IMG/VR virus record: IMGVR_UViG_3300014501_000019
Span: 1-62,230 of that record
Origin: a virus
Taxonomy: Duplodnaviria > Caudoviricetes
Length of the DNA stretch: 62,230 bases
Direction: 5' to 3' (one strand)
How positions within the stretch are numbered: position 1 is the first letter of the stretch; every line of letters starts with the position of its first letter. Below the pieces are notes generated by a model, which did not search any database, was not told the origin of the DNA, and worked only from the letters and a program-made list of their open reading frames with translations. A program made the position numbers and the translations under genes. This document shows, one piece after another, positions 12,117 to 62,230 of this stretch.

Positions 12117-12860
12117 ATGGGCGCGTTTATAGATCTAACTGGACAAAAATTTGGAAAATTGACTGTTTTAAGAAATCTCACTAAAAGAACGAAAAACAAT
12201 AGTGGCCCTACTGTATGGTTATGCCAATGTGATTGTGGAATCGTGAAGAATATTAGATATTCGGGATTGGTTAGAGGTTCTTCTAGTAGCTGTGGTTCCC
12301 ATACCTGTAGACCTAATTTTAAAGACTTAACGGGACAAAAATTTGAGAGACTTACGGTTATAAAAATGAGCACCAAAAAAGGTAAGAGAGGTTCTGCATA
12401 TTGGGAATGCGTATGCGATTGTGGAAACCTTGTAACTATATTTGGAGCTAGCATGTCATGCGGCAAAACGAGATCTTGTGGATGCGTAAAACATTCAAAA
12501 CAATACGAAACAATAAAGAATCTGCATTATAGAATGCACCTAATTCACGCAAAAGAAAACAATGTTGTCAGCTATCTTTCAAAAGAAGAATATGTGCAAA
12601 TAGCTTCACAACGTTGTCATTATTGCAACCTTATCGATATCAAGAAAAACAATCGCACCAAAGTCACAATAGAATTAAATGGGGTAGATAGAAAAAACAA
12701 TGAACTTTACTACAAAATAGAAAATGCACTACCTTGTTGTAAGAATTGTAATTTTATGAAAAGAAATACTCCATATGGGATATTTGTGTCTAGTATTAAA
12801 AGTATCTATTTAAATATCTTTAAGAAAGATCTAGAGGATAAAAAAGAATCTGACCAATAA
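12117..12860 (+). CDS. HNH homing endonuclease
   Basis: Two DLTGQKF..W.C.CDCG..SCG repeats; CHYC..GVDRKNN..PCCKNCNFMK. Confidence 0.85.
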   Translation: MGAFIDLTGQKFGKLTVLRNLTKRTKNNSGPTVWLCQCDCGIVKNIRYSGLVRGSSSSCGSHTCRPNFKDLTGQKFERLTVIKMSTKKGKRGSAYWECVCDCGNLVTIFGASMSCGKTRSCGCVKHSKQYETIKNLHYRMHLIHAKENNVVSYLSKEEYVQIASQRCHYCNLIDIKKNNRTKVTIELNGVDRKNNELYYKIENALPCCKNCNFMKRNTPYGIFVSSIKSIYLNIFKKDLEDKKESDQ

Positions 12861-27712: not shown

Positions 27713-28528
27713 TTATTTTAATTTAATTCCTAAGCTTTTTAAATATTCTTCGTTTGCAAGTATCACGGGCTGAACCGTTTTGAAAAAATCAAACTTGAGT
27801 TTAGCATCTTTTCTAAACCATCCCTTTACTTCTACAAAAATATTCCATTCTGGAATCCAAAAGTCAGGGGTATAAAAACCAAAAGGAGTTTCGAAGGATT
27901 CTGGTTCATATGTCCACTTTATATTTTTGGAATCTAGATATTGAGCGAATTTTATTTCCCAACCAGAACGCATCTTAATACCGTTGTATTCTCCTTTAAA
28001 ACAATTTTTTACAGAATATCTATTAGCACATTTTTTTGAACAATAGGTATTTTTATATTTTTTTACTACGTTTGGTTTTTGTACATAATTGTTGCCACAT
28101 CTACAAGTCAATTCGATCGAGTTGTAACAATGATGTTCTTTGGTAGGAACCTTAGGCCTTTTCTTATTAGCAATTGTTGTCAGCTCGTTTCGTTTTTCAT
28201 TAAAAATCCCATTACATTTTCGAGAACAAAAATTAGCACTATTTTTTCTATTTTGACTTACATGAAACACTTTTCCACATTTGCAATGTTTTTCTATTTT
28301 ACCCTTATAGTTTGGATTGTTCTTTCCGATAACTGAAGGCCTACCTTTTACCATTTTTAATGTTAGTTGTTTTTTATCAGAAGATTTGTTATAACACCTA
28401 TAACAGTATTGGTAAGTCTTTTTTCTCAACATGTAAAATTGTTGGTATTGTTCTTTTTTACAAATATCGCACACAAAAAGGGCGCATCTTTTTTGTTTTA
28501 TTATTTTTATGTTTTCCCAATAAATCAT
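27713..28528 (-). CDS. PD-(D/E)XK-type putative homing endonuclease with zinc fingers
   Basis: C.CG...FCS.KC repeats; MRSGWE..WTYEP..YTPDF..VEVKG. Confidence 0.8.
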   Translation of the reverse strand: MIYWENIKIIKQKRCALFVCDICKKEQYQQFYMLRKKTYQYCYRCYNKSSDKKQLTLKMVKGRPSVIGKNNPNYKGKIEKHCKCGKVFHVSQNRKNSANFCSRKCNGIFNEKRNELTTIANKKRPKVPTKEHHCYNSIELTCRCGNNYVQKPNVVKKYKNTYCSKKCANRYSVKNCFKGEYNGIKMRSGWEIKFAQYLDSKNIKWTYEPESFETPFGFYTPDFWIPEWNIFVEVKGWFRKDAKLKFDFFKTVQPVILANEEYLKSLGIKLK

Positions 28529-36433: not shown

Positions 36434-36458
36434 ATAAGTGGTGTACTCCCATGTATGG

Positions 36459-36467
36459 CAATCTTAT
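36459..36467 (+). promoter_or_regulatory. CAATCTTAT motif
   Basis: 4 nt before ATG 36472. Confidence 0.65.
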
Positions 36468-36471
36468 CTGT

Positions 36472-37176
36472 ATGAACAAATATACAGATGAACAAAAAGA
36501 ATTAGTGATTACTCTACGAAAACAAGGATTTACATACGAAAAAATAGCTATTATAGTGGGCATCAAAACAGGAACGACTGTCCATAACATTTGCTATGCT
36601 GCCGGTCTTCCTAAAAAACCATATCCTAGAAGAATAGAATATGCGATTGGACAAAAATTCGACTATTTTACTATAATAGCTCCATCTCCAACTATAACTA
36701 CCCATAAAGGAAGAACTTACACTTGTTGGGAATGTAAATGTGATTGTGGTCAAATATTTACTACAACTACAAAGCAAATAGGAAAAGGAATAAGAAAGTC
36801 TTGTGGGTGTCGCAATAGGGATGGTCGATTTAAAAGAGCCGACGGCGATGTGATAATAGCAAAATATAGAGAAAATCACTACAAATCAGGAGCAAAAAGA
36901 AGAAAATTGATTTGGCAATTAAGTTTTGAAGAATTTATGAAAATGCTTTATGCGAACTGTGTTTATTGTGGATCAACTCCTTTTCTCCCAGTTAAAAGAG
37001 GATGTCATGAAAGAAAATCAAATGGTGTGGACAGGATAGATTCAGATTTAGGATATTTTACAGAAAATTGTGTTGCCTGTTGTAGATTTTGCAATCTGGC
37101 AAAGGGAGATAGGACCAGGGAAGAATTTTTGGAATGGATTGAAAGAGTTAAAGCTTTTGAACCAGCTATTAAATAG
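36472..37176 (+). CDS. HNH homing endonuclease with N-terminal HTH
   Basis: GFTYEKIA HTH; WECKCDCG; CVYCG..GVDRIDSDLGY..CCRFCNLAK. Confidence 0.85.
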   Translation: MNKYTDEQKELVITLRKQGFTYEKIAIIVGIKTGTTVHNICYAAGLPKKPYPRRIEYAIGQKFDYFTIIAPSPTITTHKGRTYTCWECKCDCGQIFTTTTKQIGKGIRKSCGCRNRDGRFKRADGDVIIAKYRENHYKSGAKRRKLIWQLSFEEFMKMLYANCVYCGSTPFLPVKRGCHERKSNGVDRIDSDLGYFTENCVACCRFCNLAKGDRTREEFLEWIERVKAFEPAIK

Positions 37177-38179: not shown

Positions 38180-38504
38180 GAGAGAAACCCATGGAGATCA
38201 TTACATCTAAGACTTCAGTTTTTCTTAGGCTATTGATCAATCTAGCAAAGTCCTTATCTTTTTCGATATGAACTAGGATTGGACCTTTGAAATAACCTGG
38301 ACAATAAACATTGGCTAACCTTAGAAGTCTCTCTCCTTCTTCCTCCATAAATACAGCGTAGTAATCATGGGCAATGCAAGTTAGTCCTTTGCCTACCGAT
38401 AGAAGAGGAATTGTATCTGCGAATTCATAAAACCACTCTTCGAGTCTAATAAGTTCTTTAAGTAGGATTACGTGATTTTCTGGAATATCGCCAAAGGTTC
38501 TCAT
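38172..38504 (-). CDS. Hypothetical protein
   Basis: Coupled ORF. Confidence 0.6.
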   Translation of the reverse strand: MRTFGDIPENHVILLKELIRLEEWFYEFADTIPLLSVGKGLTCIAHDYYAVFMEEEGERLLRLANVYCPGYFKGPILVHIEKDKDFARLINSLRKTEVLDVMISMGFSLD

Positions 38505-39088
38505 AATTTTAACTTAGTGCCCTTTTTAATATTTTCTATAGCCGTAAGTATTTGAAGATTCCAGGGAACGTGGAGTCCAGAAATTTCTTTTCCTTGCAGT
38601 GGCATTATGTGGTCAACATGATGTTTGATACCAGTTTCTTTAGTTAACTTAGCGGCTTTCGTATAGATATCTTCTATTTCTTTTAATTGTTCTCTTGTAA
38701 GCCATTTGGGAGTTCTTTGAAGTTTAGCCGCGTGTCTTTTTGCATTTGTGGCGTTTACTTTTCCACGATTGTCTTCTTGCCATTTAGAGTGTTGTTTTGC
38801 AACATATTCTTTATTTTCTTGGTGCCAAACTGCCTTGTATGCAATAACCTTATCTTTATTTTTTGCGGTCCAGGCAGATGTCCTTATCAAAACTTCTTCC
38901 CTATTCTTTTCATAACTAATATGACTTTTTATTTTTATTTCTTCTTTATTTCTAGTCCTGTAGTCTTTTCGACATGAAAAGCAGTGCGGATTTAATCCAT
39001 CTTTTCTGCCCCTATCTACACCAAAACAAGTACTTGATTGTGGATTAAGCTGATTACAATTTGGATTAGAACACTTTTTTGTTATTAT
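38501..39088 (-). CDS. HNH endonuclease, probable non-canonical ATA start
   Basis: HHVDHIMPL..GLHVPWNLQIL...EN..K; frame stays open upstream through a zinc finger (KCSNPNC..DGLNPHCFSC) to ATA after GAGGA. Confidence 0.75.
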   Translation of the reverse strand: MITKKCSNPNCNQLNPQSSTCFGVDRGRKDGLNPHCFSCRKDYRTRNKEEIKIKSHISYEKNREEVLIRTSAWTAKNKDKVIAYKAVWHQENKEYVAKQHSKWQEDNRGKVNATNAKRHAAKLQRTPKWLTREQLKEIEDIYTKAAKLTKETGIKHHVDHIMPLQGKEISGLHVPWNLQILTAIENIKKGTKLKL

Positions 39089-42938: not shown

Positions 42939-43538
42939 TCAGAAACCGTTGGGGTTGTCAACACTTTTCTTCTTTTTGCCAGAAAGATCTTTCTTAGTTT
43001 TATTCTTAGTTTTATTCTTATGACAAGTATAGCAAAGAATTTGATGATTAGATAGTCCTAATGACTCTCCACCATTACAAATAGCTAAAATATGATCCAC
43101 TTCTGGAGCGCGACTTTTCTCACATTTATCTTTAAGTCTTTTCAAATACCACCATTCGAGGAGAGATAAGTCCTGATCCTCACCTTTACTAGCAGGATAG
43201 CGTTCTTTCTCTCTTCTCAGGACGGCCTTCATAATGGGTTTGTAATCAAATTGGCAGTCAGCACATTTCCAGTCTTGTTTAATCAGAAGAAACTTAAGAG
43301 AATTTTCTTTTTGTGGATAGCTCCAAGCCATAGCTGAATCGGAGCATAGATTAGAACAATACTTTTGATTACCATGAAAAATCTCTACTTCAGCACACCA
43401 AGCACAAAGTCTCTTAGGTTTACCTTTAGCATTAAGCTCGTCCAATTTGATTGGATGGATACAAGAAAGATTATAGGATCTTTCCTTTATGGATTTAGTT
43501 AATGCTATCACTTTGGGATTGCCAGAAGGTTTAAACAT
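42939..43538 (-). CDS. HNH endonuclease
   Basis: CAWC..YCS..C; CADC; EVDHILAICNGG..NHQILCYTCHKNKT. Confidence 0.8.
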   Translation of the reverse strand: MFKPSGNPKVIALTKSIKERSYNLSCIHPIKLDELNAKGKPKRLCAWCAEVEIFHGNQKYCSNLCSDSAMAWSYPQKENSLKFLLIKQDWKCADCQFDYKPIMKAVLRREKERYPASKGEDQDLSLLEWWYLKRLKDKCEKSRAPEVDHILAICNGGESLGLSNHQILCYTCHKNKTKNKTKKDLSGKKKKSVDNPNGF

Positions 43539-43616: not shown

Positions 43617-45227
43617 TTAAGTAATTACGTAACTCGCAGAACCAACCTGAGAGGTAGCGTATCCAGACAATACGGCAATTGCATTTACGGTCTCGGAAGC
43701 GGATACGGAGATTGCTCCAGTATATAGAGTGCTATATACCGTAGGAGTCGTTCCATTGGTAGTATAGTAAATAGCGGCTCCGGGAGTGCCCGAGGTGATC
43801 GTAACCGTCTGTGTAGAAGGGTAGGATCCACCAACAGGACTGAAAGCGGGGCGACCTACTTGAGAAGAAACAGGAGCTAATACTGTAGTAACAACTGCAC
43901 CACTGGCACTAGAGAATGCTTCAGCCATAACCGGCGTTTCAGGACCACTCGAAGGAGCGATAACGTTCGCGGCAGCACTAAGAGTAACGGCTCCAGTCAA
44001 AGCGATTAATGAACCATTCACGGTTCCACCAAGAGTATCGGTGATACTGGCTTGAGCGATGATGTTACCTTGAAAGGTGCCAGCGCTCCCTGAATTGATG
44101 GTTGCAGATGAACCAACGATCCAGTAGATGTTGGCAGAAGTAGCCCCGTTTTCAAGAGTCATGACAGGAACACCTCCAGCACCAGTAGTAAGTGTGGAAG
44201 CAGTATATAGGATATACGTGCCTGCACCATTAAAAGTTAGGGTTCCTGTAGCAGAAGTAGCTAGATGTGCAGCTCCTCCGGTGAACTGATAATTCCCAGG
44301 TGTGAGTGTTTGACCGTCTAGAGTTGCTGAAATCGTGGTACCAGCTAGACCAAGAGTTTGTTTGGAGGTAAACGAAGCTTGTGCTGCGGTTTGGGCAGAA
44401 GAAGCTACGCCGTCCGCGATATGCTCGCCACCAGTATAAGTACCAGGAGGGAAGCCAGTAATACTCGTCCCAGGATAGATGCCAAGATCTCCAGTAAGAA
44501 CGCTTGAACCCGTATTGGTGACTGCAGAGGCGCCCAAGATAGCGAAGGCACCCATTCCACCGCTAGAGGCGTTCATGGCTGCAACTGTCTTAGTGGCAAC
44601 TGCTGAAGCCGAATCACTGCTAAGAATGGTTACTTCGATCCCGGTAAAGCCAGCTGGAGCTGGGTCGGTATTTGAACCGCCTGAAACATTATACCAAATG
44701 TAGTAAGAATTAGAATTACCGCCAGTAAATATTTCAAAGTACTCACCTGCACCAGTAGATGCGAAGGCAGAACCTGCGGGGAAAGTCATCAAATCCCACT
44801 GCTGACGAGCGGGACCTTGAAATTGAACAGATGAACTAAATCCGGAAGGCATCGTTACATTAACTGGCGAGCCGTTAAAATACGCATTTGGAAAAGAGTT
44901 GGGCACCGTTGGGGGTAAAAAGTTTGGAAAAATAGGAGCTTGGACACCGCCAGCTAGAGCGTTAAGCAGTTCTTTTAGACTAGCATCTGGAAGACTGAAG
45001 CCGTCTTTTACAAACTGAACGTCAAGAGGACTAAGTGCGTAGGTTCCAAGAATACAGGCTTGAAAATTACTGGCCATACTAGGACGACCAAGACAGTCGG
45101 TCAGTCTAGTAAAATCAATGGAAGAAAGTGTGGTTTCTTGGGCAATGGCGGAAACGAGGTTGAGACCTGAAGTGGTGCTGCCCATTCCGCTGATAAGATA
45201 AGCTTGAGTAGTTGAAGATAAAGACAT
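43617..45227 (-). CDS. DUF3494 ice-binding-like protein with C-terminal Ig-like (chitobiase/Fn3-associated) domain
   Basis: FAILGASAVTNTG..GDLGIYPGTSITGFPPG..LTPGNY..NIYWIVGSSAT..GNIIAQASIT (~43960-44560); PAFSPVGGSY..IYYTTNGTTPT..LYTGAI (~43620-43860). Confidence 0.85.
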   Translation of the reverse strand: MSLSSTTQAYLISGMGSTTSGLNLVSAIAQETTLSSIDFTRLTDCLGRPSMASNFQACILGTYALSPLDVQFVKDGFSLPDASLKELLNALAGGVQAPIFPNFLPPTVPNSFPNAYFNGSPVNVTMPSGFSSSVQFQGPARQQWDLMTFPAGSAFASTGAGEYFEIFTGGNSNSYYIWYNVSGGSNTDPAPAGFTGIEVTILSSDSASAVATKTVAAMNASSGGMGAFAILGASAVTNTGSSVLTGDLGIYPGTSITGFPPGTYTGGEHIADGVASSAQTAAQASFTSKQTLGLAGTTISATLDGQTLTPGNYQFTGGAAHLATSATGTLTFNGAGTYILYTASTLTTGAGGVPVMTLENGATSANIYWIVGSSATINSGSAGTFQGNIIAQASITDTLGGTVNGSLIALTGAVTLSAAANVIAPSSGPETPVMAEAFSSASGAVVTTVLAPVSSQVGRPAFSPVGGSYPSTQTVTITSGTPGAAIYYTTNGTTPTVYSTLYTGAISVSASETVNAIAVLSGYATSQVGSASYVIT

Positions 45228-45465: not shown

Positions 45466-46005
45466 TCATATGAGTCCTAAAATTTTATTAGTAACAGCAA
45501 ATTCTCCGAAAAGGATAATGGCTGCCTCATCATGTGCTTTAGCTGCTTCTATTTTAGTGTGATAGGTCCCTAATACAATTTGTTTCCCATTTTTATAGAT
45601 ATGGGCTCTCCATTTTTTGGTCCTATTTTTATCTGATCTATACGATACACCTTTATATCCAGACGTGTTATCCGATCGGATTCCGACATTGGCAGCATTA
45701 GATTGTTTATCGGCACATCTTAAATTGTCCCATTTATTATTAGACCTATTTCTATCCTCATGATCCACATGGGCAGGAATTGTTCCTGTTATGTATAAGA
45801 AAGCCAATCTATGAGCCCTATAATGTTCTCCGTCTATACCAATCATAACGTATCCTTCGCTACCACCATAAGTCGGCGTATAGCCCGCAATTGTACCGGC
45901 TTCATGCTGATTGTTTTTAGACGAACGTGTCCATACAAAATCCCCTGTTAGTGGATCATAATATAATATGGATTTTAAATATTCTTGAGTTATAATTTTA
46001 GGCAC
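45466..46005 (-). CDS. HNH-AP2 homing endonuclease
   Basis: YRAHRLA..VDHEDRNRSNNKWDNLR; SGYKGVS..WRAHI..LGTY..EAAKAHDEAA. Confidence 0.9.
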   Translation of the reverse strand: MPKIITQEYLKSILYYDPLTGDFVWTRSSKNNQHEAGTIAGYTPTYGGSEGYVMIGIDGEHYRAHRLAFLYITGTIPAHVDHEDRNRSNNKWDNLRCADKQSNAANVGIRSDNTSGYKGVSYRSDKNRTKKWRAHIYKNGKQIVLGTYHTKIEAAKAHDEAAIILFGEFAVTNKILGLI

Positions 46006-51542: not shown

Positions 51543-52109
51543 ATGAAAGGCGCAAGAAGTTTAACAGATCAAGAAATAACGGATGTCTATAACTCATTGA
51601 AATCTTTGAGAGATAAGGCATTTTTCTGGCTAGGCATAAAATGCGGGTTAAGAATAAGTGAAATACTTTCTTTACAGATCAAGGATGTCATGGAGTATGG
51701 AGAAGTTGGAAGTCAGGTAAAGGTAAGAAAAAACAATACCAAGGGTAAAATAGAAAGCAGGACTTTGCCACTGACAGAAAGTGCGAAACGAGTATTGAAA
51801 ACGTATATTGATAGTTTATGGAAAGCCGTGCCCGATGATATGCTGTTTAAGTCAAACCAAAGTAAAGAGGCTATCACAGTAAGGCAAGCCAATAGAATTC
51901 TTAAGGAAGCGTTCAACCAATTAAAGTTGCAGGGAAATTGCAGCTCACATAGCCTAAGAAAGAGTTATGCCCACAGAGTCCATAAGGCGTTGGGCGAAAA
52001 GATTGAAAAGACGCAGATAGCAATGGGGCATAAAAGTCTGAGTTCGACGGTAAGCTATATTCAGGTAAATAGGGAAGAAGTAGATCAGGCGATCTTGGGG
52101 ATGGGATAA
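51543..52109 (+). CDS. Tyrosine recombinase, catalytic domain only
   Basis: GLRISE (R), TKG (K), HSLRK (HxxR), MGH..STVSY (H, Y); AGGAGG RBS; 188 aa. Confidence 0.92.
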   Translation: MKGARSLTDQEITDVYNSLKSLRDKAFFWLGIKCGLRISEILSLQIKDVMEYGEVGSQVKVRKNNTKGKIESRTLPLTESAKRVLKTYIDSLWKAVPDDMLFKSNQSKEAITVRQANRILKEAFNQLKLQGNCSSHSLRKSYAHRVHKALGEKIEKTQIAMGHKSLSSTVSYIQVNREEVDQAILGMG

Positions 52110-53225: not shown

Positions 53226-53900
53226 TCAGAGCGAAGCGACCACGGGTATTGGAATCTCAAAAGGTGGAATGCTTTCGTCGATGTTGTGAAGAAGCTTGTA
53301 GGCTAGCCATTCTTCTGGAGACTTTGCATTCTTCTGGATATTATATATCCCCCACATGGGTTTTATATTTGTAAAATGAAAATATTTATATAACTCTTCT
53401 TCTGTTTTAGCGTTGGAAAGAGAAATTGTATGATCTAAATGCCATTCACCGTGATTGTCCCAAGTCATTCCTGGTTGAAATAGGGATTCTAGATAGACAG
53501 TTAGTTCGTAAATAGAACATCCTAAGTATTTGGCATAATCGCATGAATTATTAAACCTACCTTTTTTAAGAGCAGAATTTAGTCTAGATCTTAAAGTATT
53601 TTTCAATCTAACTATGGTATTTTTAGGTTTGTAGGCTTTTGTTTTATTAACAGATTTTTTACGCCTGACTCGGGGAGTAAACTTATGATCTTTGAAAAAT
53701 ACAGGTATTTTTCTTTCCCTTCGTTTTTCTTTAATCTTGTCCTTGTTTAACATACGCCTTTTGCTGTCATAATCACGTTCACAAACTCTACAAATATAAT
53801 AAGATTTTACACTCTCATGTTTATCCCTGTATTGCCTAAAATCTGTTTGGTTCTTTTCAGTCAAACACTGATTACATATTTTATTACTCAAATCGCTCAT
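53226..53900 (-). CDS. HNH-type homing endonuclease (paralog of 4038-4793)
   Basis: CNQC..CRVC; YLESLFQPGMTWDNHGEWHLDH..HFTNIKPMW..N..K. Confidence 0.85.
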   Translation of the reverse strand: MSDLSNKICNQCLTEKNQTDFRQYRDKHESVKSYYICRVCERDYDSKRRMLNKDKIKEKRRERKIPVFFKDHKFTPRVRRKKSVNKTKAYKPKNTIVRLKNTLRSRLNSALKKGRFNNSCDYAKYLGCSIYELTVYLESLFQPGMTWDNHGEWHLDHTISLSNAKTEEELYKYFHFTNIKPMWGIYNIQKNAKSPEEWLAYKLLHNIDESIPPFEIPIPVVASL

Positions 53901-54606
53901 ATTATATATGTTATATCATAAGATTTTTATAGAAAAATTTTTAATGATATTAATAAGTTACGTTCATTAATTCTTTAAAATTCTGGAAAAATTTTAAAGT
54001 TGTTATTACGGTCGTGTGAATAAATGTAACTATATGGGCCTTCAGTTTGGCCATGTCTATTAGGACCCGGTTCATGAAATATATGTCTAACCTTTTGTAA
54101 TCATTGACTTATTTGGATTGGCATGTTCTATGATGCCGATACGTGACACATGCACGCGGACATAGGTGATGACTCATGTCAGGGCAGACATTTTGCATTA
54201 GCAATGCCGATGCCATACAACTTAACTAATGCATACGCGGGTTTATAGCGCAACGCGTTATAGGCCGATGCTATGGCCATGGCTTACCCTGCGTTGTCCA
54301 CTGGCGCCGATCCTAGACAGTCTGCTAGTGAATTTCGAATACCTATAAGGTACGATACAGCATGACCTGACTGGCGCATTGACTCCAATGGGCGCCATTG
54401 ATACTAACTATATGAGATTATTAAATTTAGTTTGATTCGTGACTTCTTTTACTCTTTCGGGACACTGGCATTTTGAAACACAAATGCCCTGCAACGGATG
54501 CTCCGCGCAAGGCGATTGACTATTTATTTTTCTAATGCTATAAAAGCGAGGGATAATACTAGCTATGTATTAATCCCTCATTGTAAAGATTGAACTACTT
54601 AACTAG

Positions 54607-55059
54607 TTATTTTGATTTGTGTTTTTCTATGTATTTGATAGCATTAGCTAATATACTGGAGTCTTCTAAGAAGATGCCTAATCCCGTGTTACATCTGCGA
54701 CACAGTAATCCGCGTACCACTATTTCGCCTGTTTTCTCTTCTATCGTATGGTCATGGTCAACCATTAGCTGCAATCGGCGCCCCGTTTTCTTTCGAATGC
54801 CCGTTTCGGGTAGTTCACAAATAGAGCAGTTACCATTTTGTGATTTCAATACTTCGTTGTATCTCTCTAATGTTATTCCATAATGATGCTTGTAATGAGT
54901 ATCACGGTATAGATCGGGATTCTTTAATGGGTATGCCCTGCGTTTAGTGCTATGACAGACCTTGCAATAAGTACTTAAGCCGTCATTCTTTCGACGTTCT
55001 TTATTGAATAGTTCTATTGGTTTAGTCTCATTACAGCAACTGCATTGTTTATGTGTCAT
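54607..55059 (-). CDS. Endonuclease VII-like homing endonuclease
   Basis: YGITLERY..QNGNCSIC..VDHDH..VRGLLCRRCNTGLG. Confidence 0.88.
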   Translation of the reverse strand: MTHKQCSCCNETKPIELFNKERRKNDGLSTYCKVCHSTKRRAYPLKNPDLYRDTHYKHHYGITLERYNEVLKSQNGNCSICELPETGIRKKTGRRLQLMVDHDHTIEEKTGEIVVRGLLCRRCNTGLGIFLEDSSILANAIKYIEKHKSK

Positions 55060-55084
55060 AGCGGATTATATCATGCAATACACA

Positions 55085-55177
55085 TATCCAAGTATTAGAC
55101 AGTGTAAACGCCATAGACACTATTTTAAATTAACAGTTGCCATGTCTCATATACTTAGGTCTGGCATAGCCGCTGCA
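55085..55177 (+). promoter_or_regulatory. Tandem upstream element plus sigma54-type promoter, copy 1
   Basis: TATCCAAGTATTAGACA-G-TGTAAACGCCATAGACA (55085-55119); TGGCATAGCCGCTGCA (55162-55177, GG-N10-GC). Confidence 0.75.
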
Positions 55178-55231
55178 ATAGAGTATAAGTGTCAGTAACA
55201 AGGTCATGCGTAAACTGATCTAACCGGGAGA

Positions 55232-55465
55232 ATGACAATGAAATGCGATAAGTGCAAGACTACTGTTGGCATGAGTACACAACATGGCCATGTTAACATG
55301 ACTTTAAATGGCATTCCATCAACGGTTTGCCGCGCATGTAGTTTTGAGATTAGGGATAATCAGATAAAAATTGAAGTATTTGAATTTTCAGGTGAATTCT
55401 GTAAACATGGCCTGCCCATGGCGTTAGGGTATGATATCTGTGAATGCGAGATATCCAATGAGTAA
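55232..55465 (+). CDS. Hypothetical zinc-binding protein
   Basis: CDKC..CRAC..CKHG..CEC; GGAG RBS. Confidence 0.6.
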   Translation: MTMKCDKCKTTVGMSTQHGHVNMTLNGIPSTVCRACSFEIRDNQIKIEVFEFSGEFCKHGLPMALGYDICECEISNE

Positions 55466-55661
55466 AGTAGCTAGTTATAAACATGGCGTATCTTGGATTG
55501 CAATGAATGACAATAATGGCGCATTAGATGCAATGGTTACAGAAGTAGTAGCGTCCTATATTTCAACGATTTTACTTGCCGATCTTTTTGGCAAGACAGT
55601 CGAACATGTCGCTAAAGACATAGTTAAAGCCCGTATGAGAATTGAAGAGTCAACTATATGA
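55458..55661 (+). CDS. Hypothetical protein
   Basis: Coupled ORF. Confidence 0.6.
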   Translation: MSKVASYKHGVSWIAMNDNNGALDAMVTEVVASYISTILLADLFGKTVEHVAKDIVKARMRIEESTI

Positions 55662-55900
55662 CTAAATAGGAATTTACTAAGGCTTTACAGCTAGCGCATT
55701 CCGATAATGAAGTACCTGCATACTTTTCAACTGAAATGAGTCATCTTAAGGATTGCGCGTTAGACAATAAACGCAGGTATGTCCGTTTAGACCATGTCGC
55801 TAGTCTTATTCGTGGACATTGCTTGACGTTTGCCGGAACATGGGATTACACTGAACTTGCCAGTATTCAGGAATGGTCGAAACGCTTTGATTTGATCTAA
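55658..55900 (+). pseudogene. 80-codon ORF with in-frame TAG at codon 4
   Basis: ATG ACT AAA TAG GAA TTT..., otherwise open to TAA 55900; ATGA overlap with the upstream gene. Confidence 0.55.
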
Positions 55901-55916
55901 ATAATTGAAAGAATTT

Positions 55917-56405
55917 ATGAAAATCTCTAATTCCCGTGGTTTCAGTTTGCTTGAAACCATGATTGCTCTGGCCGTCTTGAGTATCCTAGCTATGGCTTCC
56001 GCAGGCTTGATGACCAATATACTTCGGGCTCAAGTCACGGCTACCGTTGATTCAGATATCCTAGGTTTAGTCAGTCAAATGCGAGCGGCGTTGCAAAACA
56101 GCACTACAGCCGTATGTTCAGAGGATCTATCCAGTGGTTTACAAGTAGTGAACCCTTTGAACACTGTGCAGGTCATTGCTAGCGGTGGTATGTCATTTAA
56201 TAATAAACTTTGGAATATCTCCATGATTGGATTGACTAATACCACTGTGTTGAATGGCGTTACTAAGGGGACAGTCGTCATGACAGTCAATAAAGACACT
56301 ACTAGACTCTATGGCGCGCCCCAGTCTCAAATTGTAGTCACTGATATCTATTGCACGACTCCAGTTGCGCCAGTGACTCCCGTTGACCCCTGTGATAAAA
56401 ATTGA
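55917..56405 (+). CDS. Type IV pilin/pseudopilin-like protein
   Basis: Class III signal MKISNSRG|FSLLETMIALAVLSILAMA (Gly -1, Phe +1, Glu +5, hydrophobic helix). Confidence 0.85.
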   Translation: MKISNSRGFSLLETMIALAVLSILAMASAGLMTNILRAQVTATVDSDILGLVSQMRAALQNSTTAVCSEDLSSGLQVVNPLNTVQVIASGGMSFNNKLWNISMIGLTNTTVLNGVTKGTVVMTVNKDTTRLYGAPQSQIVVTDIYCTTPVAPVTPVDPCDKN

Positions 56406-56417
56406 ATTGAGGAAACC

Positions 56418-56675
56418 ATGAAAGTCTTTACTAAGATATATGATCCTGGACATGGTTGGCTGAAAGTTAGCCGTAAAGCCTATGAGGCAAGCGGTTACGT
56501 AGCATCGCGATACAGCTATCAGTCTGCTAGTGGTAAAACCGTGTATCTTGAAGAGGATTGCGACATGTATGGGTTTTTGTTGGCTATTGGCTACAGTACC
56601 TTAACGCGTGTTCGACTCAAAAATGTTTACATCAAAAACTATAGCAAAATCCGTAACTTGGAGCCTATCAAATGA
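56418..56675 (+). CDS. Conserved phage hypothetical protein
   Basis: DPGHGWLKV..YSY..VYLEEDCD motif; GAGGA RBS. Confidence 0.7.
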   Translation: MKVFTKIYDPGHGWLKVSRKAYEASGYVASRYSYQSASGKTVYLEEDCDMYGFLLAIGYSTLTRVRLKNVYIKNYSKIRNLEPIK

Positions 56676-56908
56676 AAATTTACATTGTTACTATTCATCC
56701 GACTAAGGCTAGCAAGTCTAGTTACCTGCTAGGCGCGTATTCCACTGTCAAGCTTGCCCATGATGCAGCTAAAGCCGAAGTAGGCCGCGCCGACGCGTCA
56801 TGGTGGACAAATTACGATATTACTATGGCTACCGTAGATCGTAATGTCGAGCATATTGAGCATAATGGAAACGACCACTATTTGAAGTATGTCGAAGGAT
56901 TGGATTGA
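56672..56908 (+). CDS. Hypothetical protein
   Basis: Coupled ORF. Confidence 0.6.
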   Translation: MKIYIVTIHPTKASKSSYLLGAYSTVKLAHDAAKAEVGRADASWWTNYDITMATVDRNVEHIEHNGNDHYLKYVEGLD

Positions 56909-56909
56909 T

Positions 56910-57098
56910 ATGCATATATACGCTATAACCTTTACAATTGATGGAGTTAGGGATTACAAGGTTATCCAGGCGGCTAGCGGTATCAGCGCTGTAAATTGGT
57001 TGCGCCGCAAGTTGAAAATGGATGGAATTGACTTGAGTCTTTTCCTAGTGGTAAGCTGTAAGCTGGAAAAAGACGTTAGCGTTTATGATCAACTGTAA
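56910..57098 (+). CDS. Hypothetical protein
   Basis: ATG 56910. Confidence 0.55.
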   Translation: MHIYAITFTIDGVRDYKVIQAASGISAVNWLRRKLKMDGIDLSLFLVVSCKLEKDVSVYDQL

Positions 57099-57113
57099 AT
57101 GAAAGGAAAACCG

Positions 57114-57452
57114 ATGTCTAAGCCAATTAATGGTTTTACTAAACAGAAAATCTTGGAAGTCTTGCAGGCTCGAAAGTTTCCCGGACGGGCGATAAGCGAT
57201 GAAAGGGGCGATTGTGCTTACAAGACTGAGGATGGTAACAAGTGCGGCGTTGGCATGTTTATCCCAGATGGTCATAAAGCCGAATCCTATCACGGGTCAT
57301 ATTTGGAAGTAATCGCATACTATCCCGATCTACTAGCGTTTATGCCATTAGATCACGTAGGTATGGGAGAATTACAATTTGCACATGATAGTTCCCCTAA
57401 TGCCAAAAAAGCAATGCTGGATTGGGTAAATGAGAATGTGGAAAACGATTGA
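57114..57452 (+). CDS. Hypothetical protein (paralog of 58092-58442)
   Basis: INGFTK..CAY..GNKCGVGMFIP..LQFAHD. Confidence 0.7.
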   Translation: MSKPINGFTKQKILEVLQARKFPGRAISDERGDCAYKTEDGNKCGVGMFIPDGHKAESYHGSYLEVIAYYPDLLAFMPLDHVGMGELQFAHDSSPNAKKAMLDWVNENVEND

Positions 57453-57507
57453 TGTCATTAGACTAATCCCCCTAGTCTATTGAATTAACAAGGGAAGGAG
57501 AGCAGCG

Positions 57508-57570
57508 CTATACATCCAGGCTCCCGCTAGTGCGTCGTTCGGCGCGTCAAAGCTAGTGGGAGCCTTTTCT
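57508..57570 (+). terminator. Long GC-rich hairpin, probable terminator
   Basis: AGGCTCCCGCTAG...CTAGTGGGAGCCT followed by TTTCT. Confidence 0.7.
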
Positions 57571-57600
57571 ATTTGATACAGCCATGTGTCCATTATGGCC

Positions 57601-57692
57601 TGTCCAAGTATTAATCGCTGTAAACGCCTTACACACTTATCTTTCTTCACAAATCAATTAATCCACGTATTTAGTTTGGCATCTATACTGCA
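57601..57692 (+). promoter_or_regulatory. Tandem upstream element plus sigma54-type promoter, copy 2
   Basis: TGTCCAAGTATTAATCG-C-TGTAAACGCCTTACACA (57601-57635); TGGCATCTATACTGCA (57677-57692). Confidence 0.72.
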
Positions 57693-57730
57693 ATACTATG
57701 TAATCAGAACGCAGTTATACCGGAGGATAT

Positions 57731-57826
57731 ATGCAAAAACCTGATTTATTTGACTTAATCCTGATCCTTATGGCAATCCTGGTTTTAGTGCTGTGCGCGG
57801 TAGAATTCAACCAATGGTTTATGTGA
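57731..57826 (+). CDS. Small membrane peptide (31 aa)
   Basis: GGAGG RBS; MQKPDLFDLILILMAILVLVLCAVEFNQWFM. Confidence 0.55.
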   Translation: MQKPDLFDLILILMAILVLVLCAVEFNQWFM

Positions 57827-58083
57827 TGTTTACCATCGTGCAAAATGAAAATCGATATCAAGTAAGCTATAAAGGTAAGCTAAGTATTCCCTTTGACGAT
57901 ATCACGGACGCTATTAATCACGGACATCGAAGGGCATTGGCTAGTATCTCTATTGGCTCCCACATCTCTCAACTGACGGGCAGTGGCGAGGAATGGCTAG
58001 TCATTAATGACACAGTTATAGCTAAGATGTATGACGGCAATTTGATGACTGATGTCGTTGGGAATAACGACGTAACTATTTGA
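57826..58083 (+). CDS. Hypothetical protein
   Basis: TGATG coupling. Confidence 0.55.
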   Translation: MFTIVQNENRYQVSYKGKLSIPFDDITDAINHGHRRALASISIGSHISQLTGSGEEWLVINDTVIAKMYDGNLMTDVVGNNDVTI

Positions 58084-58091
58084 AAGGATTT

Positions 58092-58442
58092 ATGTTTAAG
58101 CTTATTAATGGATGGACTAAAGCAACTGTCATGGCTAAGGTCAAAGAAATGAATAATAACACGCAATGCCGGAATGAAAACGGAAACTGCGTTTATGACG
58201 ATGGTAAAGGCAATCATTGCGCAATAGGTTGCTTTATCCCACTAAATCATGGGGCAATGCAGGGAGAGCCAAGCATTCAAGCTATCAAATTAGTAACACG
58301 CTATCCAGACCTTGCACTGTGTATGCCATTTGAAGTAATGTATCTAAATGACTTTCAAATAGCGCATGACAACGCTAAAAGTTGTGACTTAACCGTGTAT
58401 GAAGCCGTCGAAAAGTTTTTAAATGAAAGAGTTACTGAATAG
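58092..58442 (+). CDS. Hypothetical protein (paralog of 57114-57452)
   Basis: INGWTK..CVY..GNHCAIGCFIP..FQIAHD. Confidence 0.7.
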   Translation: MFKLINGWTKATVMAKVKEMNNNTQCRNENGNCVYDDGKGNHCAIGCFIPLNHGAMQGEPSIQAIKLVTRYPDLALCMPFEVMYLNDFQIAHDNAKSCDLTVYEAVEKFLNERVTE

Positions 58443-58517
58443 ATTAGTTGCTATGCATTTCGAAGTCTGTTACTGTTTAGTTAGTGGTCCCAATGTAAAT
58501 AACCTGAAAGGAATTTT

Positions 58518-59372
58518 ATGAGCTTGAAAACCGTTTCCCCTGAAGTTGTCCAAGGTTTTGCCGATATCCCCGCTAATCATCCCGGTAGCGCGTCGAACTA
58601 TGGCGTTAGTGGGAGTTACCTGCAAACCGATCGACACGCTATTGTGAGTGATCGTTTCCAAGTGATTCAACCGGCTGCAGTAGGAAACGCATTGTCTGAA
58701 CGTGGTTTCAATCTTGTGTCTTGTTTGACTGGTAAAGCTAGACAAGAGGATAAAACCGATTTTCAGCGAACCATTAGCCGGTATCGCAGCAATGACTTGT
58801 TTGATATCAATGGCTTGTCACTGGATATCATCTATATCGGTAAACATATGGGTCGCGGCTGCGATGAACTTCGTTTGGGACTATATAGGGGAGTTTGCGC
58901 TAATCAGTGGGCAGTGGGTACGCTTTTTGATATGATTCGTTTCCGACACACTGGCAATGCTTTGGATGATATCCAGACTGGAATTGCAGCCGTGCTGAGT
59001 CAACGCGCTAAGCTTGTTGAAACCGTTCAGAATATGCAAGGTAAACAAATGACTGCCAGTGAAATCGAGGAATTGTGCAAAAAGTATGCCGATATTCGAT
59101 TGAATGGCAAGCCTAACGTAATCAAGGTAGACTTTCGGCGCCTTGCTACCGTGCGCCGCGCTGAGGATAGTTTTGCCGATCTTTTCACGGTGGCCAATGT
59201 TTTGCAAGAGAATGCAATCCGTTTCCCGATTCCGTATGATCTTAACGCGGTTGACACACAAGGTAACCCATATGTGCGCCATATGACTAGCCGTAGACTA
59301 CGCGAATCATCTAGTCAATTGGTTGAATTGAATGGTGCAATGTTCGATGCTGCAATGCAGTTTGCCGCTTAA
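58518..59372 (+). CDS. DUF932/DUF945-like phage/plasmid protein
   Basis: VSDRFQVI..LGLYRGVCAN..RFRH.G..DLFTVANVLQEN..LN. Confidence 0.7.
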   Translation: MSLKTVSPEVVQGFADIPANHPGSASNYGVSGSYLQTDRHAIVSDRFQVIQPAAVGNALSERGFNLVSCLTGKARQEDKTDFQRTISRYRSNDLFDINGLSLDIIYIGKHMGRGCDELRLGLYRGVCANQWAVGTLFDMIRFRHTGNALDDIQTGIAAVLSQRAKLVETVQNMQGKQMTASEIEELCKKYADIRLNGKPNVIKVDFRRLATVRRAEDSFADLFTVANVLQENAIRFPIPYDLNAVDTQGNPYVRHMTSRRLRESSSQLVELNGAMFDAAMQFAA

Positions 59373-59447
59373 TCAATAACCGGTTTATTTTGTTTGCGTT
59401 TAGAACATTGTTTCATATAAGAAAGATTGTATATCATAAAATTGACA

Positions 59448-59540
59448 TGACCAAGTATTAGACAGTGTAAACGCCATAGACAGAGTATCTGAAAATACAC
59501 AGAATAATTTATAAGGGTTTTGTTTGGCATCTCGGTTGCA
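59448..59540 (+). promoter_or_regulatory. Tandem upstream element plus sigma54-type promoter, copy 3
   Basis: TGACCAAGTATTAGACA-G-TGTAAACGCCATAGACA (59448-59482); TGGCATCTCGGTTGCA (59525-59540). Confidence 0.78.
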
Positions 59541-59579
59541 ATAGGGTATAAGTGTCAGACAACAAATACGGGAGATGAA

Positions 59580-59807
59580 ATGCGTTACAATTCTAAAACC
59601 ATGATGCTTGAAGGATTATCGGAAACCGCTAAAACTGAAATTGTGCAAATATGTCGCGATATTATACTAAACGGCAAAATTGACCGGGAAAATCAATACG
59701 TTAAGTTTTGGCTTGAGCAGACTGGAATGGGGAATGTAACGCACGGGTTACTATTGCAAACGACCGTGATGCCGTGCCGCCTGCTCCTTTCTGTTGTATC
59801 GCTTTGA
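59580..59807 (+). CDS. Hypothetical protein
   Basis: GGAG RBS, ATG 59580. Confidence 0.6.
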   Translation: MRYNSKTMMLEGLSETAKTEIVQICRDIILNGKIDRENQYVKFWLEQTGMGNVTHGLLLQTTVMPCRLLLSVVSL

Positions 59808-59835: not shown

Positions 59836-59876
59836 GAGGTATCCGCCCTAATCCCCTTACCGGATACCTCATTTTT
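59836..59876 (+). terminator. Hairpin, possible terminator or processing site
   Basis: GAGGTATCCG...CGGATACCTC followed by ATTTTT. Confidence 0.55.
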
Positions 59877-59888
59877 ATAGGAGTTAAC

Positions 59889-60944: not shown

Positions 60945-61619
60945 ATGTTATTGACACAGAATAGCAAAATGAAGAAAAGTTCTAAGAATGGCCTAACCGT
61001 TGTTAACTGGACTATTCCCGCATTCATGTCTAGTAGTGGATTCCGGACCTGCCCTAATGCCGGAGTATGTGCTAAGGGATGCTATGCGCGTAGCGGGACA
61101 TACATGTTTAAATGCTCAAAGGCAAGCCATGAAAAGAAGTTAGCTTTGACACAACGCGATGATTTTACTCAAGTTATGATCAATGAAATCGAGTCATGGC
61201 TTAAAAAGAAAAGCGTTAAGCATCTTAAGGTTAGAATACATGACGCAGGCGATTTTTATGATATCCAGTATTTGAATAAATGGGTTAGCGTTATGACACA
61301 CTATGCCACTGATAGCCGTGTCAGTTTTTACGCGTATACTAAACAAGTAGACATGTTTAAGAAATACCGCGCAGTCAAAGGTTTGCCCGATAGTTTTACC
61401 GTTATTTTTAGCTATGGCGGCAAGCAAGACAAGTTGATTAATCCCGCAGTGGATCGACATAGCAAGGTTTTCGAGTCAATGGATAGGCTAGTTGCTGAGG
61501 GATATGCTGAGTCAACGGCTGATGATATGGTCGCTGCAATGGGAGTCAATAATAAAATCGGCCTAGTCTTTCATCATGTCAAAAATTGGGAAAATACGGC
61601 ATGGGATAGGGTTAAATAA
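60945..61619 (+). CDS. Gene product 88 (gp88)-like protein
   Basis: NSKMKK..TCPNAGVCAKGCYA..VRIHDAGDF..FYAYTK (CxxxCY radical-SAM-like motif). Confidence 0.75.
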   Translation: MLLTQNSKMKKSSKNGLTVVNWTIPAFMSSSGFRTCPNAGVCAKGCYARSGTYMFKCSKASHEKKLALTQRDDFTQVMINEIESWLKKKSVKHLKVRIHDAGDFYDIQYLNKWVSVMTHYATDSRVSFYAYTKQVDMFKKYRAVKGLPDSFTVIFSYGGKQDKLINPAVDRHSKVFESMDRLVAEGYAESTADDMVAAMGVNNKIGLVFHHVKNWENTAWDRVK

Positions 61620-61654: not shown

Positions 61655-61670
61655 TGGCACAACTTGTGCT
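61655..61670 (+). promoter_or_regulatory. Possible fourth sigma54-type promoter
   Basis: TGGCACAACTTGTGCT (GG-N10-GC) upstream of ATG 61684. Confidence 0.5.
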
Positions 61671-61683
61671 ATGAGGAAATTTT

Positions 61684-62230
61684 ATGAAACTAACTTTTAA
61701 ATTGACTTCCGAAAGTATTGTTAACGTCCATGGCGTCAAACTTTATCGCATGGAAGCCATAACGGATATTCCCGCGCGTGGCGTCAAGGCAGGTGATAAA
61801 GGCGGATTTCTATCCAGTGCGGACATTAACGGCAACGCTCGGGTATTCGGCAACGCTTGGGTATACGGCAACGCTCAGGTATACGGCGACGCTCGGGTAT
61901 ACGGCGACGCTCGGGTATACGGCGACGCTCGGGTATACGGCGACGCTCAGGTATACGGCAACGCTTGGGTATACGGCAACGCTCGGGTATTCGGCAACGC
62001 TTGGGTATACGGCAACGCTCGGGTATTCGGCGACGCTCAGGTATACGGCAACGCTTGGGTATACGGCAACGCTTGGGTATTCGGCGACGCTCAGGTATAC
62101 GGCAACGCTCGGGTATTCGGCAACGCTCAGGTATACGGCGACGCTCGGGTATACGGCGACGCTCGGGTATACGGCGACGCTCGGGTATACGGCGACGCTC
62201 GGGTATACGGCGACGCTCAGGTATACGGCA
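61684..62230 (+). CDS. Hexapeptide-repeat (beta-helix) protein, truncated by the window end
   Basis: MKLTFKLT..LYRMEA..GDKGGF then G(N/D)A(R/W/Q)V(Y/F) repeats. Confidence 0.85.
   Translation, partial: MKLTFKLTSESIVNVHGVKLYRMEAITDIPARGVKAGDKGGFLSSADINGNARVFGNAWVYGNAQVYGDARVYGDARVYGDARVYGDAQVYGNAWVYGNARVFGNAWVYGNARVFGDAQVYGNAWVYGNAWVFGDAQVYGNARVFGNAQVYGDARVYGDARVYGDARVYGDARVYGDAQVYG
61831..62230 (+). repeat. 18-bp coding tandem repeat, about 22 units
   Basis: GGC(A/G)ACGCT(CGG/TGG/CAG)GTA(TAC/TTC). Confidence 0.95.

Follow-up and report, generated by a model that had tools for sequence, protein, structure and literature searches.

Repeated sigma54-type promoter-like cassettes head three blocks of small genes in an uncultured phage

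Bacterial promoters of the sigma54 (RpoN) type are the sole class unable to fire without an ATP-driven activator, and examples with upstream enhancers are glnAp2, nifH and pspA, which are served by NtrC, NifA and PspF, respectively. Phages, too, are known to repeat promoter modules in front of small early genes: T4-type phages carry the early-promoter cassettes called PeSL, and T7 has the tandem strong promoters A1-A3 at the early end of its genome. Both are sigma70-type and need no ATP-driven activator. In T4 late transcription, the sliding clamp is described as an enhancer-like mobile activator (PMC2988020). For Pseudomonas phage YuA, a short description records a sigma54-type promoter region and states that transcription depends on sigma70 and sigma54 (PMC10914365, citing Ceyssens et al. 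2008).

The window, the whole stretch of 62,230 nt of phage DNA analysed here, holds three intergenic cassettes that resemble the bacterial RpoN promoters in a TGGCAY-N5-TTGCW core with exact GG-N10-GC spacing, in the lack of -10/-35 hexamers and in a conserved element about 70-100 bp upstream. They differ from them in lying on a phage genome, in being repeated as cassettes or arrays, in having no AAA+ activator or sigma54 encoded with them, in an upstream box without the usual enhancer dyad and, at some sites in relatives, in abutting start codons. A sigma54-type promoter region on a phage is shared with YuA, for which that description gives one region, P015, among other promoter types, whereas here three cassettes stand on consecutive gene blocks and relatives carry 17-23 copies; the two cases are set apart by description, not by sequence (PMC10914365). 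The first-pass annotation had called such control unusual for a phage, which is fair but, given YuA, not absolute. T4 late promoters are likewise a phage class with an unusual activator in place of a simple sigma70 promoter, but T4 encodes its own sigma factor (gp55) and co-activator, and no such genes were recognised here.

Three cassettes at the heads of consecutive gene blocks

Re-reading of the sequence confirmed the three cassettes where they had been annotated, at 55.1, 57.6 and 59.5 kb. Exact copies of a 32-nt upstream box, CCAAGTATTAGACAGTGTAAACGCCATAGACA, lie at 55088..55119 in cassette 1 and at 59451..59482 in cassette 3 (0 expected), and a diverged copy in cassette 2 (57604..57635), defined by repeat family D4 and the cassette alignment, is identical at 26 of 32 positions by manual count; all three are on the plus strand. 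TGGCAT-N5-YTGCAAT follows in every cassette, at 74, 73 and 74 bp from the box, or 77, 76 and 77 bp from the annotated cassette starts, in agreement with the 76-77 bp first given. The exact GG-N10-GC spacing also held, while the gap between TGGCAT and TGCA, annotated as N7, is N6. The cores, again on the plus strand, are cTGGCATagccgCTGCAATA with downstream GTATAAGTGTCAG in cassette 1 (55159..55195; GG at 55163-64, GC at 55175-76; 13.8 bits), TGGCATctataCTGCA followed by ATA in cassette 2 (57677..57692; 14.4 bits) and tTGGCATctcggTTGCAATA with GTATAAGTGTCAG in cassette 3 (59522..59558; 16.0 bits). The sharing of ATAG(A/G)GTATAAGTGTCAG by two copies was borne out (repeat family D19, 37 nt, 84% identity).

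The strict pattern TGGCAY-N6-TGCA occurs four times in the window against 0.29 expected, a count reached by none of 100 shuffles; three matches are the cassettes (55162, 57677 and 59525, plus strand), and the other lies inside a gene (58313-58328, minus strand). A position weight matrix built solely from relatives' sites gave 7 window matches of at least 14 bits versus about 1 per shuffle, and the cassette cores, at 13.8-16.0 bits, individually fall within the range of the best chance match in a 62-kb shuffle (11.6-19.4 bits). CTGC stands in place of TTGC in two of the three cores. TGGCAT and TGCAATA are invariant in all copies of the cassette alignment, and the 42-bp spacer and the 5 nt that separate the two words are variable, which is the pattern of a bipartite -24/-12 element. 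Since the cassettes are paralogous copies of one ancestral cassette, they represent roughly one event rather than three independent ones.

A block of small genes on the plus strand follows each cassette, and terminator-like hairpins close two of these blocks. Cassette 1, with a predicted start near 55188, precedes about eight small genes by ORF content (55238..57452), beginning with the ATG at 55238; one of them (about 55918-56405, plus strand) encodes a prepilin-like protein whose N-terminus carries a methylation motif (Pfam N_methyl, 4.3e-08). This block ends at an intrinsic-terminator-like hairpin of 48 nt with UUUUCUAUUU (57518..57575, plus strand), for which a 96-nt piece folds at -37.8 kcal/mol (z = -3.3; 1 of 200 shuffles folds as well). 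Cassette 2, with a predicted start near 57703, leads into the ATG at 57731 and a block (57731..59372, plus strand) that encodes a 31-aa hydrophobic peptide, two small proteins and a DUF932 protein (58518-59372). Behind cassette 3, with a predicted start near 59551, one 75-aa gene of no known family begins at the ATG at 59580 and forms the third block (59580..59807, plus strand); a weaker terminator-like hairpin with a 10-bp stem, a 15-nt loop and AUUUUUAU follows it (59836..59878, plus strand) and is not significant by energy alone (z = -0.7). These positions fit promoters: cassette 2 comes directly after the strong hairpin, and cassettes 1, 2 and 3 are each co-oriented with the next genes, at 62, 40 and 41 nt from GC to ATG. 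Assembled contigs of one RNA library that are identical to the window cover genes of blocks 1 and 2 (run X8), which is no more than a hint, since such libraries can also contain DNA. Runs with the window sequence are labelled as permafrost and peat metagenomes. The first-pass annotation took the genes to be early, a timing suggested solely by their small size and unknown function.

We regard it as on balance probable that the cassettes are paralogous -24/-12 promoter modules read by host sigma54 polymerase, with the upstream box binding an activating factor. The core at the head of each of the three consecutive blocks would most likely be bound by host RNA polymerase carrying sigma54, transcription would begin about 12 nt past the GC to give leaders of about 30-50 nt, and the 32-bp box, 73-74 bp upstream, most likely binds the factor that switches the closed complex on. 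The host could supply this factor as an enhancer-binding protein, or the phage could encode it in the unsequenced 61% of its genome. A different origin for the repeats was considered, since a 53-nt stretch of cassette 1 recurs in cassette 3 at 89% identity and the window has at least 10 HNH or endonuclease VII-like genes, one of which adjoins cassette 1: they could be recombination or homing repeats, the borders of mobile gene modules spread by homing endonucleases, with no role in transcription. That is highly improbable, as conservation is block-wise at fixed spacing rather than end to end, flanking inverted repeats and target duplications were looked for at the cassettes and none were found, and the core that is conserved also occurs as the same motif in relatives, at non-homologous places. 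The divergent endonuclease VII-like gene beside cassette 1 (54607-55059) has a possible extended -10-like word, TGATATAAT, 5 nt before its ATG (55065..55073, minus strand). What may be a decayed copy of this word, TGATATACA, lies beside cassette 3.

Further -24/-12 matches lie outside the cassettes. The annotated fourth match, TGGCACAACTTGTGCT (61655..61670, plus strand; 17.4 bits), exists directly after the GP88-family gene and is part of a small hairpin, but the TGTC reported 78 bp upstream of it is a trivial tetramer inside that gene. With just 15 nt between its GC and the ATG at 61684, a start at +12 would come after the ribosome-binding site. The three cassettes have room for a ribosome-binding site in the leader, but 61655 and several sites in relatives do not; in relatives some motifs lie only 14-20 nt before the ATG, which would place a canonical +12 start within or past the ribosome-binding site. 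A fifth strict match, TGGCATCGGCATTGCT followed by AATGCAA (54200..54215, minus strand; 14.6 bits), lies in a 700-bp non-coding stretch. The AATGCAA there doubles the -12 word, as also happens in relatives.

The core motif in relatives and other viral contigs

Distant relatives were reached through the neighbouring GP88-family gene. Among the GP88-side loci, 9 of 21 carry three or more motifs, with 14 in L001 and 23 in L002 within about 13 kb. Whole records contain 17 copies (G001) against 1.3 expected and 23 (G002) against 0.9, clustered at the matching genome end; GG/GC conservation in related phages, on which the first-pass annotation had made its reading depend, was seen, with enrichment, in both. 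The start-to-start distance from TGGCA to TGCW is 12 in 20 cases in G001 and 24 in G002, versus 0-7 at any other distance, and of the possible orders of the two words, TGGCA followed by TTGCA alone is enriched (451 versus 0, 2 and 6). The logo of 44 relatives' sites, tTGGCAYR-N4-TTGCAt, agrees with the sigma54 consensus TGGCAC-N5-7-TTGCT as given in a passage of a published work (PMC12316311). The presence of the same bipartite motif at the same exact spacing, enriched in the matching region of distant relatives, supports the sigma54-type reading of the cassettes.

The relatives also bear on whether the cassettes are sigma70-type promoters, with (C/T)TGGCA as -35, a 17-nt spacer, TATAAG or TGTAAT as -10 and the box as an upstream activator or UP-like site, the likeness to sigma54 promoters being coincidental. 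Phage early promoters are usually sigma70-type, TTGGCA-N17-TATAAG of cassette 3 matches five of six positions of both TTGACA and TATAAT at the ideal spacing of 17 nt, and the -10-like word and the TCAG after it are partly conserved in all three copies. However, the word is TATAAG twice and TGTAAT once, the last T being missing in two copies and the second-position A in one. These two are the -10 bases most needed by sigma70-family factors, and a sigma70 consensus scan listed none of the cassettes because each copy lacks one of them. TGCAATA is invariant although it would be mere spacer. In relatives the -24/-12 words stand alone, and nothing is conserved at the would-be -10 hexamer (at most 0.16 bits of information content in the 44 sites), which weakens the sigma70 reading further; we hold it to be decidedly unlikely.

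Beyond the relatives, the tandem motif was found in at least 120 viral contigs, whereas a control pattern with the spacer lengthened by two bases gave 4. Single-linkage grouping placed 85 of 120 loci in one group and the remainder in 28 small groups or singletons, and 118 of the 120 have no protein in common with the window. Some carry dense arrays (21 motifs in 6.5 kb in L078; eight tandem copies with a 27-bp period in L041) or face-to-face palindromic pairs (L149 and L057), and such pairs and 27-bp arrays are odd for promoters. In a large podovirus-like family, most array members are oriented toward the GP88-side genes, and in the L133 lineage a conserved box of its own directly abuts the motif at 9 of 10 sites.

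Dense arrays and facing pairs would suit sites that bind the sigma54 holoenzyme but mainly do not act as promoters, serving as a sink for scarce host sigma54 or as roadblocks and thereby switching off host responses that depend on sigma54. No activator is needed for sigma54 holoenzyme to form stable closed complexes, none is encoded, and some sites adjoin start codons. Against this, the window holds just 3-5 sites, with promoter-like placement and orientation at block heads and a box at fixed distance, and the arrays of the podovirus-like family mostly aim at genes on the GP88 side. We therefore think a sink or roadblock role very unlikely to be the main one.

Candidate activators and the upstream box

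A domain search confirmed the earlier statement that no enhancer-binding protein is encoded in the window. Sigma54 and AAA+ activator (bEBP) domains were absent from the window and five relatives' records, and also from 41 further motif-bearing records, of which 17 are at least 90% complete. Sigma70_r2 was found in none of five records (the window and four relatives), one of them 100% complete; T7-type RNA_pol was found in none of five records either, one complete, which is a weak negative because that search gave no match in any of its control genomes. An AAA+ activator is regarded as indispensable at every sigma54 promoter (PMC4641369). The contig is 39% of the genome, which leaves room for a phage activator in the part not covered, so that the activator is possibly a host protein or a novel phage protein.

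A bEBP enhancer (upstream activating sequence) would have one or more dyad-symmetric sites about 80-150 bp upstream, recurring throughout the regulon of its activator. The box lies at about -100 to -69 relative to the sigma54-type start that is predicted, and this position and the fixed spacing fit such an enhancer. As for the tandem enhancer proposed in the first-pass annotation, the box and its fixed distance are real, but its first half is degenerate in cassette 2, and no dyad symmetry, which typical enhancer sites have, was found in the 32 bp. Only cassettes 1 and 3 retain both 17-bp TGT-N11-ACA sites, as the first 17-mer of cassette 2 ends in TCG; the two 17-mers agree at 9 of 17 positions by manual count. 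A search of 185,579 species genomes, viral contigs and metagenome contigs gave no match to the box, with a 20-base degenerate pattern far stricter than a real binding site.

The motif may instead be read by a phage-encoded protein from the missing 61%, such as a novel sigma-like factor, polymerase or DNA-binding regulator that recognises TGGCA-N6-TTGCA, with the box as a further site bound by that factor or by another one from the phage. The incompleteness of the contig leaves space for such a gene, and no activator or sigma54 was found in any motif-bearing record. The palindromic pairs and tandem arrays of other phages resemble protein-binding arrays, the L133 box adjoins its motif, and some motifs are too near start codons for a sigma54 start. 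We nevertheless consider this explanation unlikely. The logo matches the sigma54 consensus down to minor positions (Y -21, R -20, T -15, W -11), order and spacing are strict, and neither Sigma70_r2 nor a T7-type polymerase turned up in the five records. Moreover, the grouping of the 120 loci and their lack of proteins shared with the window imply that several lineages would each need a factor of identical specificity.

Implications for phage dependence on the host

Tentatively, and with more doubt than confidence, we propose that many uncultured phage lineages place their first genes under sigma54-type promoters, standing singly or in arrays of as many as about 20, without encoding an AAA+ activator. 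Activation would then come from a new type of activator at lineage-specific boxes, such as the 32-bp box and the L133 box, or from any host enhancer-binding protein that is active at the time, in which case host physiology would gate infection, and arrays could soak up host sigma54. Metagenomes could be screened for such phages with the strict motif as a simple marker. Because sigma54 promoters need an ATP-driven activator, a phage with genes behind them gives up autonomy. If sigma54 does read these cassettes, as well as the arrays carried by at least 120 other viral contigs, phages may sense the state of the host through host activators; alternatively, they may carry an unknown means of opening sigma54 complexes, or may use the sites to disable the sigma54 responses of the host.

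Repeated intergenic cassettes and the gene blocks that follow them

The first-pass annotation had described repeated intergenic cassettes with a -24/-12-like core and read them as sigma54 promoters with a tandem enhancer under a host activator; the cassettes themselves were borne out with small corrections. A 32-nt box occurs as exact copies at 55088 and 59451 and as a diverged third copy at 57604, in which 26 of 32 positions are identical by manual count. The tandem pair of TGT-N11-ACA sites ascribed to it is intact in copies 1 and 3, but not in copy 2. TGGCAT follows the box at a distance of 74, 73 and 74 bp in cassettes 1, 2 and 3, respectively. When the cassettes were aligned, two blocks proved to be conserved, whereas the spacer of about 42 bp that lies between them no longer shows recognisable similarity; in the second block, all three copies keep TGGCAT and TGCAATA unchanged, with an intervening five-base sequence that is different in each. 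The spacing proposed earlier, TGGCAT-N7-TGCA, is thus really N6, while the GG-N10-GC assignment was correct. The pattern TGGCAY-N6-TGCA was found four times in the window against 0.29 expected, a count reached in none of 100 shuffles, and three of the four matches are the cassettes (plus strand, 55162, 57677 and 59525), although these three are copies of one ancestor and the score of each alone falls among those of the best chance hits. In another sample, the region is tiled by DNA contigs that are interrupted at the copies of the box (records end at 55117 and 59480, and one starts at 59448); we attribute these breaks to the box, which is a long exact repeat. No mobile-element signatures were found around the cassettes, and no dispersed dyad motif exceeded shuffles in the window's own region. 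When the DUF932 protein encoded between cassettes 2 and 3 was used as a query against viral and metagenome contigs, no close relatives suitable for footprinting of the cassettes were obtained.

The gene blocks of the window were taken from ORF lists read by eye. Cassette 1 has an endonuclease VII-like gene of the minus strand on one side and, on the other, the first plus-strand gene (ATG at 55238), which opens block 1 (55238 to 57452, plus strand). This block is followed by a 48-nt hairpin with a U-run (57518-57575; -37.8 kcal/mol and z = -3.3 for a 96-nt piece), and cassette 2 is placed directly 3' of this hairpin, at the head of block 2 (57731-59372). Block 3, headed by cassette 3, consists of one gene (59580-59807), after which a weaker hairpin with a U-run is present. 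Since the cassettes stand at block starts and a hairpin precedes cassette 2, they sit where promoters would be expected, in the correct orientation. From one RNA library, contigs with 0-5 differences (records 23, 24, 26, 27 and 30) overlie block 1 and block 2 genes, but such contigs can neither show transcript ends nor exclude DNA carry-over, and uncovered parts of the region carry no evidential weight.

The window is an entire viral contig of 62,230 bases, of linear class and with an estimated completeness of 39%, which implies a whole genome of about 160 kb; blastn of the cassette region against 50,697 deposited phage records found no matching DNA. Most of it consists of nucleotide-metabolism and tail/baseplate-like genes, including those for ribonucleotide reductase, dUTPase, phosphoesterases and a baseplate-like protein. 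Small plus-strand genes are found from about 55.2 kb to the contig end, the majority without a known family; the exceptions encode prepilin-like, DUF932 and GP88-family proteins. The prepilin-like protein (55918-56405, block 1) carries an N-terminal methylation motif (Pfam N_methyl, 4.3e-08). No tRNA genes were detected in the window, and no Rfam families in the window or in four loci. The 62 kb contain at least ten genes of HNH or endonuclease VII-like type, which are likely homing endonucleases (9057-9695, 12117-12860, 22500-23498, 27713-28528, 36451-37176, 38501-38890, 42939-43538, 45466-46005, 53226-53900 and 54607-55059), an unusually high load. A TGATATAA-type extended -10 word precedes the ATG of two endonuclease VII-like genes by only a few bases (55057-55075 on the minus strand, and 53900-53935), so near that leaderless or near-leaderless transcripts would result. 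The 700 bp at 53900-54607 hold no convincing ORF and no Rfam match, and contain a -24/-12 match in which the -12 word is doubled (TTGCTAATGCAA). A single protein at 43617-45227 joins an ice-binding-like domain (PF11999) with chitobiase-C and Fn3-associated domains, and is of interest because the public runs containing the window sequence are labelled permafrost and peat metagenomes. An ORF of 188 aa at 51543-52109 appears to be a short or truncated integrase-like gene, since its tyrosine integrase match (PF00589) is limited to the catalytic part. The final ORF (61684-62230) enters at least 27 tandem 18-bp units encoding a hexapeptide repeat (GNA/GDA-R/W/Q-V-Y/F); the contig ends within this array, and contigs of several relatives likewise stop near their GP88-family gene.

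The core motif in relatives and the choice between sigma factors

Twenty-one viral loci were retrieved via the GP88-family gene that adjoins the cassettes. The strict motif TGGCA[CT]-N5-NTGC[AT] occurs 14 times in locus L001, 23 times in L002, three times in each of seven more loci and once in two; ten loci have none. In the whole records containing L001 and L002 (G001 and G002), 17 and 23 strict motifs were counted against 1.3 and 0.9 expected, nearly all of them within 10-15 kb containing the GP88 and DUF932 genes, and two further records (G003 and G004) carry a three-motif cluster in a non-coding stretch beside the GP88/DUF932 region. The window and its motif-bearing GP88 relatives have few genes in common and their motif sites lie at non-homologous places, indicating that the motif has been maintained rather than merely inherited. 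A distance of 12 between TGGCA and TGCW was found in 20 and 24 cases in G001 and G002, against 0-7 at other distances in the range 5-30; conservation of the GG/GC spacing in related phages was looked for and found. The logo built from 44 relative sites, tTGGCAYR-N4-TTGCAt, agrees with the published sigma54 consensus (PMC12316311).

The cassette cores could alternatively be written as sigma70-type promoters, (C/T)TGGCA-N17-TATAAG or TGTAAT, but this match is a weak one. Sigma70-family factors depend most on two bases of the -10 element, and each cassette lacks one of these; a consensus scan listed none of the three. A sigma70 reading also leaves the invariant TGCAATA unexplained. In the relatives, exact -24/-12 spacing is accompanied by no -10 conservation, the information content at the position of the would-be -10 hexamer being at most 0.16 bits across the 44 sites, and we take the relatives as settling the choice between sigma54 and sigma70. 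The comparison with relatives thus strengthens the sigma54-type reading beyond what the window alone could show. On the other side, at 61655 and at several L001 and L002 sites the GC lies only 14-20 nt 5' of an ATG, so that a transcript starting 12 nt on would skip the ribosome-binding site, and the distance from motif to next gene has no preferred value across all loci. Weighing these points, we regard a sigma54-type core as the best-supported explanation, with somewhat more confidence than doubt.

A further sequence, the near-palindrome GTCTCA-N3-TG(A/G)GAC, occurs 19 times in G001 and 29 times in G002 against about 2.6 expected, with a strand bias and almost entirely in the -24/-12 motif region (the first ~5 kb of G001 and the last ~9 kb of G002), also inside genes; the window has no copy. 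No fixed upstream element was found in G001 or G002. At L002:4290-4700, a GC-rich non-coding stretch packed with GCGCGTGGC-like repeats has -24/-12 motifs on its flanks, both tandem and inverted; this stretch may represent an origin, a terminal region or a site for packaging.

Motif arrays in other phages and the GP88-family gene

At least 120 viral contigs contain TGGCAY-N5-TTGCA twice within 5-35 nt, whereas a control in which the spacer was two bases longer was found in four. The 120 loci listed hold 575 strict motifs in 949 kb, and TGGCA followed by TTGCA at 11 nt was counted 451 times in them against 0, 2 and 6 for the other orders; enrichment of a single order argues against a homodimer reading direct repeats. 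Grouping of the 120 by shared proteins, which is rough because the loci are short windows, placed 85 in one loose group and the others in 28 small groups or singletons, and 118 of them have no protein in common with the window. About 55 of the listed loci have a common podovirus-like module (portal, large terminase, M15 peptidase and primase-helicase). In this family the array occupies a divergent region with packaging genes on one side and the GP88-family gene on the other, and most motifs face the GP88 side. The arrays take several forms, from eight tandem copies with a 27-bp period (L041) and 21 copies in 6.5 kb (L078) to face-to-face palindromic pairs (L149 and L057), which are hard to picture as working promoters. 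In L133, from a 141-kb record (G037), nine of ten sites have a conserved word of some 20 nt (GAGTTAYGTAAAG...) immediately next to TGGCAC, a lineage-specific extension of the motif. The portal and primase-helicase of the large tandem-array family are ~25% and 43% identical to those of marine podoviruses; three cultured Siovirus genomes (SIO1, ICBM1 and P12053L) contain no strict motif, and blastn of two array loci gave no match.

The GP88-family gene adjoins motif clusters in two phage groups. The family was rejected as a functional partner of the motif, being present in Amycolatopsis and Streptomyces loci with zero motifs. Matches of this protein (PF17338; window 60945-61619) in cultured phages reach only 25-38% identity, and no solved structure matched it by sequence. 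Family members have in common an invariant C-X5-C-X3-C cluster as well as the motifs RIHDxGDFY and FYAYTK, suggestive of an enzyme that binds a metal or a cluster.

A possible host activator and the upstream box

In agreement with the first-pass annotation, the window lacks the sigma54-interaction AAA+ domain (PF00158), as do five relatives' records and 41 larger records bearing the motif, of which 17 are at least 90% complete; the sigma54 DNA-binding domain is missing from these sets as well. In the five relatives' records, the sole set searched for it, the sigma54 core-binding domain was not found; sigma70 region 2 and, in a search without a positive control, a T7-type polymerase were likewise absent from five records. 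Among 20 small or neighbouring window proteins, none has a recognised DNA-binding domain in Pfam. If sigma54 reads these sites, the activator would therefore either come from the host or be of an unknown kind. In the window phage, the 32-bp box would be its natural candidate binding site, since the box is conserved, unlike the spacer, and held at a fixed distance. The box has no dyad symmetry, and its pattern was found nowhere else in viral, metagenome or genome contigs. Together with the abutting word of L133 and the near-palindrome of G001 and G002, it raises the possibility that lineage-specific partner sites may be a general feature.

The closest precedent found is a sigma54-like promoter in Pseudomonas phage YuA (PMC10914365); a putative sigma54-like protein is reported for Pectobacterium phage Q19 (PMC7693777), a preprint describes a phage protein that resembles AAA+ enhancer-binding proteins but lacks the sigma54-contact loop (10.64898/2026.10.06.757011), and in Salmonella, rpoN is described as affecting phage sensitivity by an indirect route (PMC8744999). 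The literature searched, which was of limited coverage, yielded no paper on -24/-12 motif arrays or cassettes in phage genomes. Judged from sequence, these phages would carry predicted sigma54-class promoters in repeated cassettes and arrays while encoding no recognisable activator, which would be a variation on a known promoter class.
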